In this document: piece by piece, positions 43,866 through 63,879 of the stretch
How positions within the stretch are numbered: position 1 is the first letter of the stretch
Layout of the letters: each line of letters starts with the position of its first letter
DNA from: Eledone cirrhosa
Lineage: Eukaryota
Direction of reading: 5' to 3'
Assembly (NCBI GenBank): GCA_964016885.1
Contig: OZ024745.1
Location: forward strand, 48,856,001 to 48,920,000
DNA length: 64,000 nt
Made by a program: the position numbers and the translations under genes
Notes under the pieces: generated by a model
What the model was told of the DNA's origin: nothing
The model's database searches: none
The model's input: only the letters and a program-made list of their open reading frames with translations

Positions 43866-46187
43866 TTTTGATTTAATGTAAATTGTGTTCAGTACTTTTT
43901 TGGGGGTGGTATGTTCAGTGCCAGAACTCTATGGCATTAATTAAAATGAAACATAAATTCAGTTGTGTTGACATGAAAAATAAGTACTGCCCACACTAAG
44001 GTGGCCATGCGAGTGGGGCACCCAGTACACCCTGTAAAGTTGTAATTAAAACCCACCCATCCCACACTAAGGTGGCTGGTGTTAGGAGCCAAAATACAGA
44101 TCTGTAGGAGCAGTATATGGTCCTCTTACCTGCCTTATCTCGATGTGACAACCCATCTTAATTCGGACATTAAACTGATGATGAATTCTTTAGGTACAAG
44201 ACTTTATTTTGAAGTATTTATCATTATAATCAGTTTTGTGATGACAGATTGGGCAATGTTTTATGGTTGGGTGCCCTCTTAGTCACTTATGACATGTAAG
44301 GATATGATGTACACATTCTAAACCTGATGCACTATGTATCTAAAAACCTTTGTATGTTATGTTTTTAGAGAAAATCGGTTACTAAATCCCTCCAAATTCT
44401 TTATTTCAAAATTATTTGGAGATTATTGGCATTAGAAATATGGTCATATAATAAACAAACCAATTAACCTCTGTTTGCCCCGTCCCCCCAAAAAACAACA
44501 AATAATTATGTGGAAAGATTCAAACTGACATGGTGTCCTGAAGCTGAGATTACTCTTCAGTTGTGTCAAGCACTTGATAACCTCCTTAATGCTAGTGCCA
44601 TGATAAAATACACTTTGTAAAATGGTTGGAGTTAGGAAGGGTATCTAACCAGAGAAAGCAAGACAAAGGTCAGGTAACTCTTCAGTTGTGTCGAGAACAA
44701 CTGAAGAGTGTTGATACCACGATACAATCCATCTTGCACACACTGATTGGTATTAGGAAAGGCGGCCTGTGTCTTAAAGCATAATATGGCTTTTTGTCCA
44801 TCTGGAAGAGAACCAACTCTGATTTAAGGAAAATGGGCTTTAAATGTGCAAACTGGAAATGAAACCCTGTGTATATATAAACCTTCAAACTTGAGCTGGT
44901 ATTCCTGAGGCTCTAAGCCATTCAAGTTTCTAGGACATCGTAAGAAAACATCATCTCATCACATAACATGCTAATAACAGGTCTGCCAGTTGTGTAAGAA
45001 ATGTTACCCTATATTGGTAGTCTGTACACAATGACAATTGTCATGAGTGTATTGCATTTAACTGAGAAAAGATAATTCATCTTTATATATCATTGTTTTT
45101 CCATGCTATATCATCATCGTTTAACATCTATCTTCCATTTTAGCATGGGTATGACGGGCTGTAAAGTGATAGTGTTGGTGCAAAGATAAAATGCATCAAT
45201 ACAGTCAGAATATGGAACGTATGAACAAGATGTTCTGTGACTTATCTAGCCTTGGACTGTGACAACCTGCCCAACCCATGCAAAAGTCGACCCCAGTGTG
45301 TTATTGGTACTTTTTTTATCCCTAAGAATGAAAAGCAAAGCTAACCTCAGAGTCTAGAGACATAACTACATACTGTAAAGCATGTTTGGCGCTCTACTGA
45401 TACTACCAATCCAACGCCCTTAAATAAAATAATGATTATATATATTGGAATGTCCATCCCATGCTAAAAGACATTAAATGATGCAACTAAAAGGGTTGGT
45501 GCTAGGAAGGGCATCAGGCCATAATGAATATGTGATTCAGTTTTATCACCCAAGTTCTTTCTCTTCTTGTCAAAAACCCTTCAGTCCTCCATAACCAGTA
45601 ACCATCCCCAACCAATGTGCAGTCTCAACACCTTAAACCAATCCTGCACAGATTCTATGAGCAGAGACCACCAAATGGTAGTGCCATTCTTATTTCTTTC
45701 AATAAAAAAAATACAAGCACTGCACACTGTAAGAAAACATCATCTCACCATATAGCAACCTGTCTCTCTTCATTTGGAACAAACCCATCCATTTTAAATG
45801 GTTCTGATTTAAATTAAAATCTACAAAACTCAGGTAAGACCTACAATGGAGTAGCATTCCCATATTTGGTACTGCTTGCTGTTGCTCACACAGAGATCCA
45901 GAGAAAAGCCACTTAGCTAATTTGTATAAAGTCAATCACAGACACACTGCAGCTTCTGGTTCACAGATATGCCATCTCATACCCCTGCCTCTTTTACTAC
46001 TACTAAAATGCGCTGCTCTTTGGAACTGGCTGGGCTCATTTCAAGTTATTCTTGACTTCTCTCTCCTCTAACCACCCACGTGTCCACCCTCCATTCATGG
46101 CCTCGTATGAATCACCATACTCAGTCCTTCCTGTCCAAAACTTCAACCTTCAAACTAATATTTAACTCCGTTCCTGCACCAGCCACA

Positions 46188-46305
46188 GGATTCAACATAA
46201 ACGATGAATGAGTTGCGTAACGTTGAGTGCTTTTCCTATCATGATTGTCTTTAACGGAATGATCAATTCTATCCAGTGGTGAACTACCATAAAACATAAA
46301 CAAAT
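46188..46305. repeat. Dispersed repeat ending at (TA)n; second copy at 59633-59755
   Basis: Shared ggattcaa..atgagttgcgtaacgt..acggaatga..ttctatccagtggtgaac. Confidence 0.75.
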
Positions 46306-46777
46306 ATATATATATATATATATATACACATACATACACACATACGTACGTACGTATATATGCATGTGTTTTAACTTTCGTGATAATAGTGTTTATAATG
46401 TTATAGTACAATTCCTTCAATTCTTGTACTATCTCAATAATAGACCCGGTTATATATTCAGAAATAACATTTTTCTCATTTACACCGTTCAGCTTCGCCG
46501 GAGTGTCTAACAGTCAAATTACTTTATTTTATTTGGCAATTATCTTTCTTATTTTATTGATGTTTATAGTTTATAAAGTAATTCGTATTTGAAACACGTT
46601 CTTATTGGTTACTATTTTGGAATTTCAAATACTGACTGTTTACATTTAATCCGAAAAAAAAAGAAGAAAAACAACAAAACTCTTGTAACAGTTTTCATAA
46701 TTTTCAAACAGAATTCAAAAAACAAATCTGTTACAATGCAAACTTAAGTTTACTACCGACCATAGAGAAACTAAAAC

Positions 46778-48001
46778 ATGCGTTATGTTTATTATTTATG
46801 GGAACATTTTTGCTTTATATGCGACGGAGCATCTTCGTTTATTTCAAAAAGTAAAGATTTCTTTTTTTCTATGATGGTATTTAACCACCAAGCTTTCTCA
46901 TCTGTTATAAACGTCGTGAGTTCACTATGGATATCACTTAGTTCCCTCCTTTCTGTTGCAAGTGAAATTGCCATGTGGGTTATATACGGAATTATTGAGT
47001 TTGTCACCGAAGTTGGATTCTGCTTCAGAAGTCTTGTTGTATTACTTTGGCAGCTGTTTTTAGTTTTTATTAATGTCATCATTCTTATTGTAAGTGCTAT
47101 CGAAAATTTTATCTTTATGTTGTGGAACGGTGGTGTAGGAACTGTTTCTGTGTTCAGTACATCAGTGGCAGTTGTGAAAGAAAGTTGGATGATGGCTGGT
47201 CAGAAAGGTGAAGAATTTGCCGATGCATTTTTCTTGCTCATTGTTGGTGGGTTCGAAACCATTGGCTCTTTTGTTGTGGATATTTTCCTATCTGTCGTCA
47301 ACATTTTGTCGAATATCTTCAATATCCCATATTTGATACGTGATGCATTTGACTCTTGCATTCATATGATTACAAAGGCAATGGATTATGTGTGGATTCA
47401 ATTTACTTATTCCAAGGAAGCGTTGTTCGGTGTTGCAGTGTGTATGTTCCTCCACATTTTACTTACACAAGGAATAAAAATGAGTAGAACCCTACGCGAA
47501 AGAGGTATTACATTCCCCATTTTTAGACACTATCATAGTCATAGTATTCCCAGATTTGGCAATGATAGTGAAATTTCTGACAATGAAGAACAGAATGAAG
47601 AAGATCATGATAGCAATATATCTGGATCTTACAACAGTGATTCGGAAAGTGTTGATGACAGCGAAACTAACGAAAGCGATTCGATTTTGTCCGTATCATC
47701 TGACAGCGATGTTGATCCACCAAATTATAGAAACTCATTGCAACACAATCACCCACCCTCACCACCGTTAAATAAACCGTTAAATAGCACTCAGCTGGAA
47801 AGAGAAATCGAACGTGAAAGAGATAAACGTAAGTGTGTTGTTTGTCAAGACAATGTAAAGACAGTTTTAATTCTTCCTTGTAAACACATGTGTCTGTGTG
47901 TACAATGTGCTAACCACATAGTCAGAAATGCTCCACCCGACAGAAATGTTTGTCCATTATGTCGAACCACAATACAGAAAGTAATGAATATTTATGTTTA
48001 A
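46778..48001 (+). CDS. RNF26: RING finger protein 26-like multi-pass membrane E3 ubiquitin ligase, single coding exon, 407 aa
   Basis: Hydrophobic N-terminal ~230 aa, acidic Ser/Asp linker, C-terminal RING CVVCQDNVKTVLILPCKHMCLCVQCA..CPLCRTTIQKVMNIYV resembling vertebrate RNF26 (also intronless). Confidence 0.9.
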   Translation: MRYVYYLWEHFCFICDGASSFISKSKDFFFSMMVFNHQAFSSVINVVSSLWISLSSLLSVASEIAMWVIYGIIEFVTEVGFCFRSLVVLLWQLFLVFINVIILIVSAIENFIFMLWNGGVGTVSVFSTSVAVVKESWMMAGQKGEEFADAFFLLIVGGFETIGSFVVDIFLSVVNILSNIFNIPYLIRDAFDSCIHMITKAMDYVWIQFTYSKEALFGVAVCMFLHILLTQGIKMSRTLRERGITFPIFRHYHSHSIPRFGNDSEISDNEEQNEEDHDSNISGSYNSDSESVDDSETNESDSILSVSSDSDVDPPNYRNSLQHNHPPSPPLNKPLNSTQLEREIERERDKRKCVVCQDNVKTVLILPCKHMCLCVQCANHIVRNAPPDRNVCPLCRTTIQKVMNIYV

Positions 48002-58257: not shown

Positions 58258-58904
58258 ATTATAGGTTTGCATGACACATGGGAGATGTTTCTCTTAATGA
58301 ATGGTTGGCAGAAATGTGTGAGTGGATATGGTAAATAAGGAAATTGAAAAGTAGACAATTAAGTTTTGTTAGGAATATATGAGGGATAAAAGTGTTCTGT
58401 TGGGGAACATTCTTCGAATAAGAATAGTTACTGATGCAGGAACTCATCACTTGGGGAAATGACTGGAATGCTGTTATGTTATGGAGGAGGAAATGAAAGT
58501 TAGTGGGGTTACAGACGATAGGGCAAACAGAGCAGCTTGTTATGTATGGGCTCTGCAAAGATAACCCCTGTTTTAGCACAGAAAAATGACCTTAAAACAT
58601 GTTTTTGTTGGTGGTGAGGTCAACTATGTCAAGTTTATCTTGGTAATTCCAATATGGAAGAATGGTGAGTTGGACATTCTTCACCTGTAGCAGGCCAGTT
58701 CTTGTACAAAACAAAGTATGTTATTTTGCGATCTTGTGTGTTTAGTCTATTCATGGTGACTCATATTCAGGTCAAGGCTGATGTATTAGCCCATGGGTGA
58801 GCCCCTAAGCTTTCAGGTATTTCAGAGGCCCCTTCTCTTACTGCTATCATCCTACTACAGCAAAAAAAAATTATTGTGCCTCTGGACTTAGCCTTATGAA
58901 TAAA

Positions 58905-59286
58905 TATTTCTAATTTAGGCACAAGGCCAACAATTTAGGGGACGGAGAAAGTCGATTATATTGACCCCAGTATTTGACTGGTACTTTATTTTATTGACTT
59001 CAGTGGGATTTGAACTCAGAACGTAATGAGTCATAATTAAATACCACAAAACATTTTGTCCAATGCTCTAACAATTCTGACAATCCACTGCCTTTAAAGA
59101 TAATACAGGCAGGATTCAGATATAATTGTTTCTACTTTAGGCACAAGGCCAGCAATTACCCAGAGTACATTACTGGTACTTTATTTTATCGACCCCGTAA
59201 GGATGAAAGGCAAAGTCAACCTCGGCGGGATTTGAACTCAGATCGTAAAGGGACGTAACTATGCTGGAAAGCATGGCGTCCGACCC
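58905..59286 (-). mobile_element. Two SINE family C copies; the second (59127-59286) has a 12-bp TSD
   Basis: TSD ttcagatataat at 59115-59126 and 59287-59298. Confidence 0.82.
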
Positions 59287-59750
59287 TTCAGATATAATGT
59301 GTGTTGCTTTTATGCTGCTGTTTGTAATATCTTAAACTGGATAATGTATTTGCAAATGGTGCATTGGTATTTAGTTTTACAATCGTATTGAATTGGTAGC
59401 AGTGTTTGAGCTAATTCTTCTGAGGTTTTGTGTATTTTCTTCTTGCCTATTATGGCCAGTGGTCAGTTATAATTTCAATATGCTTATAGTGAGGATGTGA
59501 TCTTTAGTTTGGTCAGAGCTTTGTTCAAGTCTCTTGTCTTGAATAAGTGCAGAAAGTACACTTCAGAACTTCAGGCAGTTACTATTTATATTACATTTTA
59601 TGCTGTGTGTGCACATGTATGTATATACATACAGGATTCAAAATCAAAGATGGATGAGTTGCGTAACGTCAAGTGGTTTTCCTACTATTACATCATGGTT
59701 AACTATACGGAATGACTAGTTCTATCCAGTGGTGAACCACCAAATTACAA

Positions 59751-59782
<32 letters not shown>

Positions 59783-59785
<3 letters not shown>

Positions 59786-60340
59786 GATAACAAATTATCA
59801 TTATTGGTAATCCAGTTAGAGGTTGTGAGTACTCTGTACTATGGATAGTTTTAACGTACAGCGTTGTTTGACTCAACAAGAGGTTTCCTTAGTTAGGTGG
59901 TGAGTTCACGGGAATTCCTATGCAGGTTAATCTTGGAGTAATAATAGTGAAAGAGTGAAGAATAACATGGTCAACAGTACAAAATGGGTTTTATTTACAG
60001 TATTAACAATTGTTTCATTGATTAGGATGTCTAAAGGTTGCTAATCACTCGAAGTTGTGTCACTCAACCTTCAGTACAGTGTATGCCTAATCAAATCATC
60101 GGAATAACTGACAAAATTACACTCAATGTTTGTTTTTATACTACGGAGAATTCAAACACGAGTGTAATTTTGTCAGTCATTCCGATGATTTGATTAGGCA
60201 TACACTGTATTGAAGGTTGAGTGACACAACTTCGAGTGATTAGCAACCTTTAGACATCCTAATCAATGAAACAATTGTTAATACTGTAAATAAAACCCTT
60301 TCTGTACTGTTCACCATGTTATTCTTCACTCCTTCACTAT
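59783..60340. mobile_element. Penelope-like pseudo-LTR with an inverted partial copy (~189-bp arms) in (TA)n
   Basis: Arms 59944-60132 and 60153-60340; one arm extends ~160 bp further to a TA run; hammerhead-like motif in each arm. Confidence 0.65.
60174..60286 (+). ncRNA. Candidate minimal type I hammerhead-like ribozyme (mirror copy on the minus strand at 59998-60110)
   Basis: Stem I CAGT(C)ATT/AATACTG; core CCGATGA (non-canonical U4C); stem II TTGATTAGG/CCTAATCAA; GAAAC-AATT-GTT. Confidence 0.45.
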
Positions 60341-60347
60341 ATATATA

Positions 60348-60863
60348 TCTATATTATAAAGCTGACAGCCGTATGTATGTAACAAACTTTTTGCTAAACG
60401 GCTGGACCAAACAGCACCAAATTTGCACCATAGATGTAACTTTTTCCAAGAAAGTGAGGGTATTTTTGTCTTCTAAATTGCATTAAAAGATTAAAGATAT
60501 TTTATCGTTTATTTAAATATTCACTTCTTTAAAATTTTCAAATGTCAACACTTCCGGTTATACGACATTCCCCTCTCTTTCTTAGTCTGTCGTTTTAGAT
60601 AGATACATAGCTATAACGTCGCACCCTTATAATATTTCTCTGTATGTCTGGCTGTCTGCATTAGATACATAGCTATAACATCGCATGCTTATAATATCTG
60701 TCTGTCTTCACAAACCAAAGTATCGTCTTCCTGTTTTTCTTCGGTTGCAACGTTTTTCGAAATATTTACTTCTGCGTTCACAGATTGATTTTTTTTAGTT
60801 TCAGAAGATCCCGTTAAGGGTGAAAGCAGCGATTCTTTGCTTAAACTTTAATCTGTTATTTTA

Positions 60864-60906
<43 letters not shown>

Positions 60907-61640
60907 TATATCCAGAATCAGTAGAGGAGCTAGAGAATAAATTCTGGCTATGGAAACAGCAGTTGGAAGCAAGAGGACTGAGAGTGAACCTAGCTAAGAC
61001 AAAAGTGTTGATGAGTAGAAAAGAGGACAAAACTCTGATTCCGTCAGGGAAATGGCCATGTTCGATATGCAGAAAAGGAACTGGCATAAATTCTATAAAA
61101 TGCACACAATGCAGATCCTGGGTACACAAGAGATGTGGCGGGATAGCAGGCAAACTAACAGGTAGGGAGAGATATGTATGTAGTAGATGTACAGGGAAAT
61201 TAGACAGAAGTCGCATTGATAGACACATTTTTCAAATGCAGGCGAGCGCTATAGAAGTGGTGGATAGCTTCCGGTACCTTCATCTTTGCTCCCGAGGGCT
61301 GAACAAAAAATATTGTATACTCTGAGGCTCTAACAATGTAATTTATGTATTTTCTGTTACTTGGAATTTCTATTATGGTTGTACAAATTATTGTAAAGTT
61401 TGTTAAAAAATGTGTTCTCTGTTCAGCCTTTATTGTTGTAACTATCAATTTTCTTTAATGTATTGGCTGCTGAACTGGGGAATCCTAAAAACTATTCAAA
61501 CCCAACATCAGAGTCCGTTAACCCCGCCACCTCTGACTTGAGAGGGTGTGCGGTATCTTTGCACTGGAGTCGAGGGGGGAATTTTGAAAAGATAAAATGC
61601 CAGTATACCGAGCCGTGCGCCAGCCGGACGGGCCAGCTAG
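60348..61640 (+). mobile_element. Non-autonomous Helitron containing an internal RTE RT/PHD fragment (60911-61280)
   Basis: a|TCTATATTATAAA start; ccgtgcgccagccggacgg hairpin + CTAG|t end; shares ttagatagatacata..tataacgtcgc.cccttataatat with the 13062 Helitron. Confidence 0.72.
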
Positions 61641-62276: not shown

Positions 62277-63879
62277 CATCATCATTATCATCATTGTTTA
62301 ACGTCCATTTTCCATGCTAGCATGGTCTGGACGGGAATTGTCCCACTTGAGGCAAGATTGGTTGTCTTGCTCAGGACTGTCTGGCGGGTTTTCTACGGCT
62401 GGATGCCCTTCCTAACACCAACCACCTTTACAGTGTGGACTGGGAGGGTTTTACCGTGTTACCTACACGGCCACATTACAGCGTGGACTGTGTGTTTTTT
62501 TGTTGTGACACCTACACGACCTCATTTATTTAGGACTGGATGTTGTGGTACCAACATAGCTTTACATCGAAAGGGGTGGTGTAGATGGCGGTGGGGGTAG
62601 GGTTAGTGGGACGGGGGTGTATTTTGGTTAAGAGGTGCCTACTGACTGTAGGTTTCGCTTTGTACTTAGGCAAGGCGGGTCTTCTGTATTACTACGTAGC
62701 GCCAAAGATCTCTGTCCAGTGACATTGTCTTGGAGAGGTGTGTGAGGTCGGATTTTATCAAGTCGTCCCAGGTTTTTCTGGGTCTGCCTACTCCGTAGCT
62801 ACCATCTATTTTGATCGCCCTGCACTTTTTTATACAGCTGTTGTCTTTCATGCGCATCACATGACCATACCAATGTAGTCTTCTCTCGAGTAAACAGCAT
62901 CTGATCCTTCTTATTCCTAATTTCTCACTTAGTTCATTTATGCTTTGCCGTTCGCGTATATTACTATTACACATCCAACGGAGCATGCAAGCTTCGTTCC
63001 TCTCCAGTCTGCGTAGATCCTCTGCACACAAGGCCCATGTCTCACTGCCATGTAACATTGCTGTTCGTATGCAGGTGTCATACAGCCTGCCTTTATTTTT
63101 AGAGAGAAACCTTTAGCGGCCAAAAGTGGTATAAGCTCTCTGAACTTTTTCCATCCCGTTCTGACTCTAGCTACAGTACTTTCAGAGCACCCTCCCCCAC
63201 TGCTGATTTTGTCACCCAGGTAACAGAAGGTGTCCACTATTTCTATAGCCCCATCTGGGCAATGGAATGAGCTAGTATCCTGTGGGCACTTGCTGCTACT
63301 TATTGCACCAGAGCACCAGCCAAATATAAAATCTATATTCTTAGTTAGCTTACCTGTGATCCCACTACATCTTTTATGCACCCATACTTTGCATTTGGGA
63401 CATAAAATGGAGTTTCTGCCTACTCCTTTCCTACACACTGAGCATGGCCATTTCCCAAATGAGACCAGTGCCCTATTCTCCTTCCTACATATTAGGACTT
63501 TAGTCTTAGACAAGTTAACTTTAAGGCCTTTTGATTCTAGGCCATGCTTCCATGTTTGGAATTTCTTCTCTAGTTCAGCCATTGATTCGGCTATGAGCGT
63601 TAGATCATCTGCGTATAGAAGTTCCCATGGGCAGCCGGTCTTGAACTCCTCCGTTATAGCTTGGAGGGCGATAATAAATAGGAGGGGTCTAAGGACGGAG
63701 CCCTGATGAACACCAACTTTTACGCTAAACTCTTCACTATATTCGTTGTTAATTCTAACCTTGCTGACTGTTTCTTTATACATGGCTTGTATAGCTCTCA
63801 CAAGCCATTCATCTACACCTAGTTTTCTAAGAGCTCACCAGATAATGGAGCGGGGGACTCTGTCAAAGGCTTTCTCCAG
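62277..63879 (-). mobile_element. RTE LINE, 5'-truncated ORF2 (RT, PHD-like finger, thumb) plus 3'UTR and (GAT)n tail; inactivated
   Basis: [53 protein letters not shown]; in-frame stop near 63835 and a 1-nt frameshift near 63092. Confidence 0.94.

Follow-up and report, generated by a model that had tools for sequence, protein, structure and literature searches.

Penelope-like elements (PLEs) of the Hydra clade are described as generally shorter than 3 kb, with one listed at 3,045 bp, and the 25 Hydra hammerheads published in File S2 of the same paper all have a CUGA core and a loop II of ≤10 nt (PMC8557442). Cleavage and circular templates have been proposed for PLE hammerheads (PMC4209133). 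The account of an Anolis PLE in vitro reports that both strands are cut and extended, with two internal start sites, an uncleaved RNA and a protein-assisted ribozyme (PMC11167929). What the hammerhead does in PLEs and how their inverted repeats arise is described as unresolved (PMC8557442, PMC11167929). As for promoters, a TATA-less internal one was described for the Penelope of D. virilis (PMC2377424), and rotifer pLTRs are reported to have TATA and Inr-like motifs as well as an optional tail (PMC3846280). Natural U10.1-U11.1 is recorded among hammerheads, and a viroid U4C hammerhead has considerably lower activity in vitro, yet sufficient activity in vivo (PMC3088659).

The window, a stretch of 64,000 nt from Eledone cirrhosa, contains an inverted repeat with arms at 59944-60132 and 60153-60340 (189 and 188 nt) that differ by 7 substitutions and one 1-nt indel; a second repeat detection gave 181 nt at 97% identity. 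The preliminary description of this repeat was accurate for the hammerhead motifs in the right arm, all of which have mirror images in the left arm, and for the extension of one arm by about 160 bp, which is the left arm running 160 nt further to 59784. It had also placed a spacer of about 20 nt between the arms. The length is correct (60133-60152), but alignment to an ORF-linked copy identified these bases as further minus-strand element sequence and not as a separate spacer. The left arm is 93.6% identical to the ORF-linked copy L031 over 373 nt, and the right arm 94.1% over 188 nt, the right arm's start falling at 60153 or 60154. (TA)n adjoins both outer ends, and no target-site duplication was discernible at the insertion, which has a (TA)15 microsatellite on its left. 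The left flank (59631-59742) is a 79% copy of a repeat at 46185-46289 that likewise ends in (TA)n. Since this other copy also precedes (TA)n, the element landed in the TA run of the flanking repeat. The right flank adjoining the insertion (60347-60370) starts like what we take to be a Helitron-type 5' end.

Table 1. Position of the inverted repeat, its predicted hammerheads and its putative promoter motifs in the window.
Feature	Position	Strand	Basis or remark
(TA)15 target microsatellite, left side	59754..59783	.	sequence
Left arm: pLTR truncated at its 5' side, with the 160-nt tail; site B (59784) is its 3' end	59784..60156	-	
160-nt tail, from end site A to end site B (both fixed)	59784..59943	-	
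Type I hammerhead, left copy	59998..60110	-	model built from these same sequences
Left stem I, 5' and 3' strands	60103..60110, 59998..60004	-	
Left core, CCGAUGA	60096..60102	-	
Left stem II	60086..60094, 60018..60026	-	
Left GAAAC	60012..60016	-	
Left palindrome	60006..60013	-	
Left predicted cut	after 60005	-	
TCAGTT, first bases of stem I, with predicted transcription start A (60109)	60106..60111	-	sequence, stop hotspot
TATAAAA (TATA-like), its first T 31 nt before the predicted start	60134..60140	-	left arm only
CAAA microhomology (3-4 nt arm overlap), head-to-head joint of arms	60153..60156	.	L031 alignment
Right arm: 5'-truncated pLTR, 3' end at site A (60340), then (TA)n	60153..60340	+	
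Type I hammerhead, right copy	60174..60286	+	motifs, alignment of copies
Right stem I, 5' strand, CAGTCATT from 60174	60174..60181	+	
Right core, CCGATGA, C at position 4	60182..60188	+	
Right U10.1	60189	+	
Right stem II, TTGATTAGG from 60190 and CCTAATCAA from 60258	60190..60198, 60258..60266	+	
Structured extension capping stem II	60199..60257	+	79 nt in all, A9 to G12
Right U11.1	60267	+	
Right GAAAC	60268..60272	+	
Right palindrome, ACAATTGT from 60271	60271..60278	+	
Right predicted cut	after 60279	+	
Right stem I, 3' strand, AATACTG	60280..60286	+	

The type I hammerhead with a palindromic minimal stem III was borne out by its motifs and by comparison among copies, and by this comparison it is real. 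The left hammerhead matches the model by construction, since the model was built from these same sequences. A profile search of the first 104 loci gave 102 full matches, of which 89 were unique. Fifty-nine of these were aligned (MAFFT, unfitted): the two arms from the window, 2 taken from a group of 31 near-identical copies, and 55 from the 58 that remained. The covariation of stems I and II proposed earlier as a check was found: 84.8% of cells are paired in the 59 copies, compared to 78.7±0.4 after shuffling and 30-44% when slid, and double changes in hammerhead pairs number 199 versus 70. Two of the five covariation measures were not beyond every shuffle (41/500 and 66/500), and the copies are related. 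Compensatory double changes affect 2/4 pairs of stem I and 5/8 of stem II. The stem II extension has 19 pairs, 10 of them changed on both sides, with 83.9% of cells paired; RNAalifold on the decayed copies recovered only 6 of its pairs.

The core residues C3, G5, A6, G8, A9, G12, A13, A14, A15.1, U16.1 and H17 are each kept in 52-58 of 58 copies (L048, whose core is deleted, was left out of this tally). No change is seen at G5 or A6, N7 varies freely, and U or C occupies position 17 in 57/58 copies, never G. Changes were also counted on an unrooted ORF-region tree of 52 rows, with four rows that carry a ribozyme from another copy excluded: the 12 core columns changed 1.5 times per column, compared to 10.6 upstream, 3.4 downstream and 4.0 in the unpaired extension (p=5e-5). 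Two variable positions, 4 and N7, changed 10 and 9 times. The sequence downstream of the ribozyme is thus well conserved too, and conservation is not limited to the core. Genome-wide, the core pattern with a gap of 76-84 nt matched 4,723 times versus 2 for the reversed control, so that it does not occur by chance. A search with Rfam at E≤10 returned no hammerhead at the inverted repeat, which we infer to be due to the long stem II. An alternative type III fold, cutting at a GUC just before stem I, was rejected, since this GUC is not kept in other subfamilies.

Both window arms have C at position 4; the U4 standard for type I hammerheads is absent from the window copies and present in sister copies. 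The aligned copies have U in 30/58 and C in 27/58, and C4 lies on separate branches of the unrooted tree. Among the 4,723 intact cores of the genome, 2,326 have C4 and 2,397 have U4, versus 180 with G5A and 74 with a purine at position 4. Since both pyrimidines occur in thousands of copies and the other two changes are rare, the transposing lineages carried both. The preliminary description had left the choice between CUGAUGA and CCGAUGA to the consensus: in the window subfamily C4 is the majority, with 144 copies against 51 with U4 (exact 21-mers). CpG decay was considered as the sole source of U4 and rejected, since its mirror product G5A is rare (11 vs 51; 180 vs 2,397) and both arms are U4 in L120, L126/L127 (one locus) and L215. 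The U-U at the base of stem II had been called atypical. This did not hold: it is present in 14 of the 25 Hydra families published in File S2 of PMC8557442, as counted here, and is thus ordinary for Hydra. A distant C4 lineage (L220-L278) has a CCGAAGA core, is very homogeneous and has, in many copies, a duplication of a segment that lies between TATA and Inr; it may be the youngest. In the literature searched, which covered text passages and File S2 of PMC8557442, we found no report of the family or of the variant. The feature belongs to a known type, and the form it takes here (long stem II, C4) was not found described in that literature; a prior listing of C4 or long-stem variants may be contained in Lunse et al. 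2017.

By their sequence, the arms of the inverted repeat are the pLTR ends of an autonomous Hydra-clade Penelope-like retrotransposon. The right arm gave 2,122 candidates in the 3-Gb genome, of which 40 were scored, and an exact 37-nt motif near the element end occurs 388 times. Longer copies have a 0.9-kb UTR 5' of the ribozyme, preceded by an ORF. A protein search for the family gave 75,583 candidates, of which 120 were scored, at 62-100% identity; the top 30 and 40 others hand-picked across the lower range were taken as loci. The Penelope-like identity proposed for the pLTR was corroborated, in that the same ends cap ORF-bearing copies with RT and GIY-YIG. The link to PLE coding sequence that was to be looked for is found in the longer copies, and an inverted partial pLTR is indeed typical of PLEs. 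The claim of a non-autonomous element, in contrast, was not supported, since truncation points differ between copies and units of about 3.4 kb that contain the ORF have these ends too. As its ends are shared with these units, the window copy is a truncated product of the autonomous family.

The single ORF combines RT with GIY-YIG at its C-terminus, with open frames of 631 aa (L116) and 576 aa (L105). Its motifs comprise N-terminal RWK and DKT, the RT motifs FDINDYY, ITMGSNDSA and YRDD, WFNP, the CxCX5C linker of the Hydra clade in the form CNCHLPDKC, and then the GIY-YIG domain (VYLCT..HYIGS). CCHH is absent, with no cysteine pair between VYLCT and HYIG; the CxxC and CxH expected near the EN end are present as CGLC and CRH (by eye). 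Among 16 long loci, RWK is intact in 3 and degenerate in 3, and DKT is found in 8. The clade was assigned by motif comparison with section 11 and Fig. S7 of PMC8557442, after which a first guess of the Nematis or Neptune clade was rejected. Pfam gave no useful match on the family proteins. Another protein search gave 365 relatives among 8,000 scored, and the best named one is a hypothetical protein of Argonauta hians (36%). The complete layout is seen in L107: a partial pLTR, the tail, an ATG about 80 nt after site B, the ORF and a second pLTR, in a unit of about 3.39 kb. In L116 (7024-7812), a fragment of a different PLE-type ORF, Neptune-like by eye, lies directly after the A end of the family.

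The ends of copies were surveyed in 90 loci picked by position (89 from the list of 37-nt end motifs and one other), with 140 arms. The 3' ends fall at two fixed points, both kept in distant subfamilies: site A lies 61 nt past the cut site, and site B another 160 nt on. TA-type repeats follow 124 of 131 A or B ends. In tandem copies the tail runs on into the 5' UTR. Head-to-head pairs were found 44 times in the 90 loci, and all 44 combine an A end with an arm passing A; 38 of the latter arms are complete to B and 6 are broken (binomial p of 6e-14 versus a 50:50 mix). This A+B pairing is consistent with each of the two ends of a cut (TA)n run acting as a primer. Among 34 close junctions, only 16 have overlapping letters, 15 have inserted bases and 3 are blunt. 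Short reiterations were also observed, namely three tandem copies of a 7-9 nt unit at site B in L107 (3812-3840), and at the predicted RNA 5' end in the L204 and L205 junctions, as if by RT slippage or re-priming.

The 5' ends of copies pile up at -106..-95 from the cut site, where 31 of the 72 arms reaching -95 stop, compared to a background of about 4% per 12 nt elsewhere in the arms. No excess of stops was detected at the cut site (4/112 arms). These positions come from single-reference alignments, as truncation coordinates drift by a few bases with several references, and L148, reassigned because microhomology had carried its alignment too far, is left out of the hotspot count. This hotspot coincides with stem I's 5' strand and holds TCAGTT, which we label Inr-like, 31 nt after TATAAA. 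A TATA/Inr spacing of 30-32 nt is found in 16/57 subfamily rows; the most distant branch has it and the L100-type branch lacks it. In the distant branch, sampled as 60 hand-picked copies, the Inr-like A lies 13 nt before C3, versus 7 in the window type. Among its short arms, 9/11 end at -3..-17, and six of these at -10..-17; this small sample was read by eye, since (TA)n inflates automatic extents. A non-templated cap-type G is seen in 2-3 junctions and is ambiguous. Since stops occur at the predicted RNA start and not at the cut site, uncleaved RNA is likely the template of the copies. Absence of a stop at the cut site would fit uncleaved or re-ligated RNA, and the stops at the predicted start speak more for RNA that is linear and uncleaved. 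In 6/44 pairs the hotspot is where both arms end, and in 4/44 both pass it, the window pair being among the latter; hence a simple model of one RNA with two pLTRs does not fit all cases.

Folding was predicted for the 117-nt ribozyme region, which has a z score of -2.55, with 3/200 shuffles equally stable. In the best predicted monomer fold the core is paired with the palindrome (probability 0.64-0.84), and the hammerhead fold is predicted to be 4.4-5.0 kcal/mol less stable. This off-state pairing is predicted to rise from 0.68 to 0.84 with C4. The palindrome would form an 8-bp duplex of -6.4 kcal/mol, and together with the monomer misfold this fits gating by dimerization. Self-cleavage is predicted to be slow or to occur only as a dimer. 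It had been suggested that transcription from either strand would give one ribozyme plus its own antisense. The geometry agrees, but the TATA/Inr-like promoter of the left arm would give a ribozyme without antisense. A read-through transcript of the whole repeat is predicted to form a near-perfect hairpin of -333 kcal/mol, which would mask the ribozyme.

Our preferred reading, with a probability of about 0.72, is that the window feature is an insertion of a Hydra-clade PLE, dead and 5'-truncated in both arms, that was made by A/B two-end priming from uncleaved RNA. Pol II would initiate at the TATA/Inr in the upstream pLTR, so that the RNA would have the hammerhead at its start, then sites A and B, the ORF, the 0.9-kb 3' UTR and the second pLTR. 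The element protein would cut both strands of (TA)n, and one DNA end would prime reverse transcription at site A, the second end at site B. Synthesis of each cDNA would break off early, in many cases at the RNA 5' end, and a few complementary bases would link the two. Both window arms reach upstream of the predicted start and would thus derive from the downstream pLTR. The copied RNA was likely not self-cleaved, in which case the ribozyme would not set the copy ends; it would more likely be an attenuated switch, able to cut only with help from the element protein or from another copy's palindromic stem III. Extending this to the whole lineage is tentative, and we hold it with less than even confidence: its RNA would start with a hammerhead that evolved a 79-nt accessory helix and a core repeatedly retuned between U4 and C4, acting as a slow, dimer- or protein-gated 5'-leader switch and not to produce templates of unit length, and A+B priming would build every inverted insertion.

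Other explanations were weighed against this scheme. The hammerhead fold might no longer cleave and persist for its structure, either as a 5' leader or as a platform to which protein binds, loss of cleavage being the reason why C4 and the 79-nt insert are tolerated. The considerably lowered in vitro activity of U4C (PMC3088659), the spread of C4 masters as well as U4 masters, the lack of a stop at the cut site in copies and an insertion in vitro that is unaffected by ribozyme mutants (PMC11167929) would all agree with this. We regard it as unlikely, since G5, A6, G8, G12, A13 and A14 are nearly fixed while N7 varies freely, position 17 is restricted as cleavage requires, and the viroid U4C ribozyme is active enough in vivo (PMC3088659). 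The 5' stop hotspot might likewise be an RT pause or a 3' splice site (pyrimidines and CAG) instead of a transcription start. Indeed, TTTTGTCAG|TTATT resembles an acceptor, the intron end in D. virilis falls at helix I's 5' end (PMC4209133), and the YAG is kept in the branch without TATA spacing. However, junctions have no common upstream exon, as the arms join an inverted partner or (TA)n, and the distant lineage has no AG there and yet stops near its Inr, so that this explanation also seems improbable.

Head-to-head repeats could also be produced without priming at both DNA ends, if an antisense template folded back or primed itself as has been suggested for the Penelopes of rotifers (PMC3846280), and some junctions are near-palindromic or reiterated (L204, L205). 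Fold-back would be expected to start both arms from one mirrored point, whereas their starts are unrelated in most of the 44 pairs, and it does not predict the strict A+B rule; we consider it quite unlikely. A distinct non-autonomous element of fixed structure, retrozyme- or MITE-like, is disfavoured and very improbable. The window copy encodes no protein and short inverted copies are common (44/90 loci). Nevertheless, junction positions vary between copies, the same ends cap ORF-bearing units, and no tandem ribozyme arrays were present in the loci examined. Non-LTR retrozymes and non-autonomous elements are fixed non-coding units, usually in tandem arrays, while the copies found here are variable truncations of a coding element.

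Thousands of natural copies constrain both the role of the hammerhead and the origin of the inverted repeats, through the strict A+B ends and the stops at the predicted RNA start, and the family offers matched natural U4 and C4 ribozymes. Standard searches can miss hammerheads whose stem II is long, as seen here with no Rfam hit versus 4,723 pattern matches in the genome. Elsewhere in the window, an uninterrupted 408-aa frame with a C-terminal C3HC4 RING finger (46775-48001, +; Pfam E 1.5e-13) is possibly a single-exon host gene or a retrocopy. Two LINE-like fragments have PHD-finger matches: one starts right after a (TA)n run (60912-61322, +) and the other also has RVT_1 (62938-63831, -). At 58900-59260 lie two adjoining copies of a short interspersed repeat (families D5-D7), presumably an octopus SINE.

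Compared to the published Hydra hammerheads (PMC8557442), those of this family differ by the 79 nt between A9 and G12 and by a CCGA core in half of the copies. The core change is the same as in the viroid U4C hammerhead cited in Perreault et al. 2011 (PMC3088659); that one is described as a rare variant, whereas C4 is found here in 2,326 genomic copies on several branches. Like the minimal PLE hammerheads of PMC4209133, the family has the type I order, a palindromic stem III suited to dimers, an extra base after A9 and a long stem II. The conserved G10.1-C11.1 pair described there is present in one branch only (5 rows), and the core variant reported in that paper (Cervera and de la Pena 2014) is U3-A8, not C4.

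At the level of the element, the family resembles the Hydra clade as described by Craig et al. 2021 (PMC8557442), including Hydra-1_Obim, in its C-terminal GIY-YIG without CCHH, CxCX5C linker, RWK and DKT, TMGS.D.A and YRDD motifs, (TA)n target, inverted 5'-truncated copies, and a pLTR hammerhead that has U.U at 10.1-11.1 and whose short stem III is palindromic. It differs by its 160-nt tail (30-40 nt in published PLEs), and the ribozyme listed in that paper for Hydra-1_Obim has a different sequence (compared at the ribozyme level). Its unit of about 3.4 kb stands beside a clade length of generally below 3 kb and a listed element of 3,045 bp. The two-end A/B priming proposed here differs from the antisense self-priming idea for rotifer Penelopes (PMC3846280). 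It agrees with the in vitro results for Poseidon PAc of Anolis (Frangieh et al. 2024, PMC11167929), in which two internal RT start sites also define the tail, both strands of an AT-rich target are cut and extended, and the RNA template is uncleaved; here these steps are deduced from copies. Poseidon PAc belongs to a different clade, and its ORF starts inside the ribozyme, whereas the ATG of the Eledone family lies about 300 nt after the cut site.
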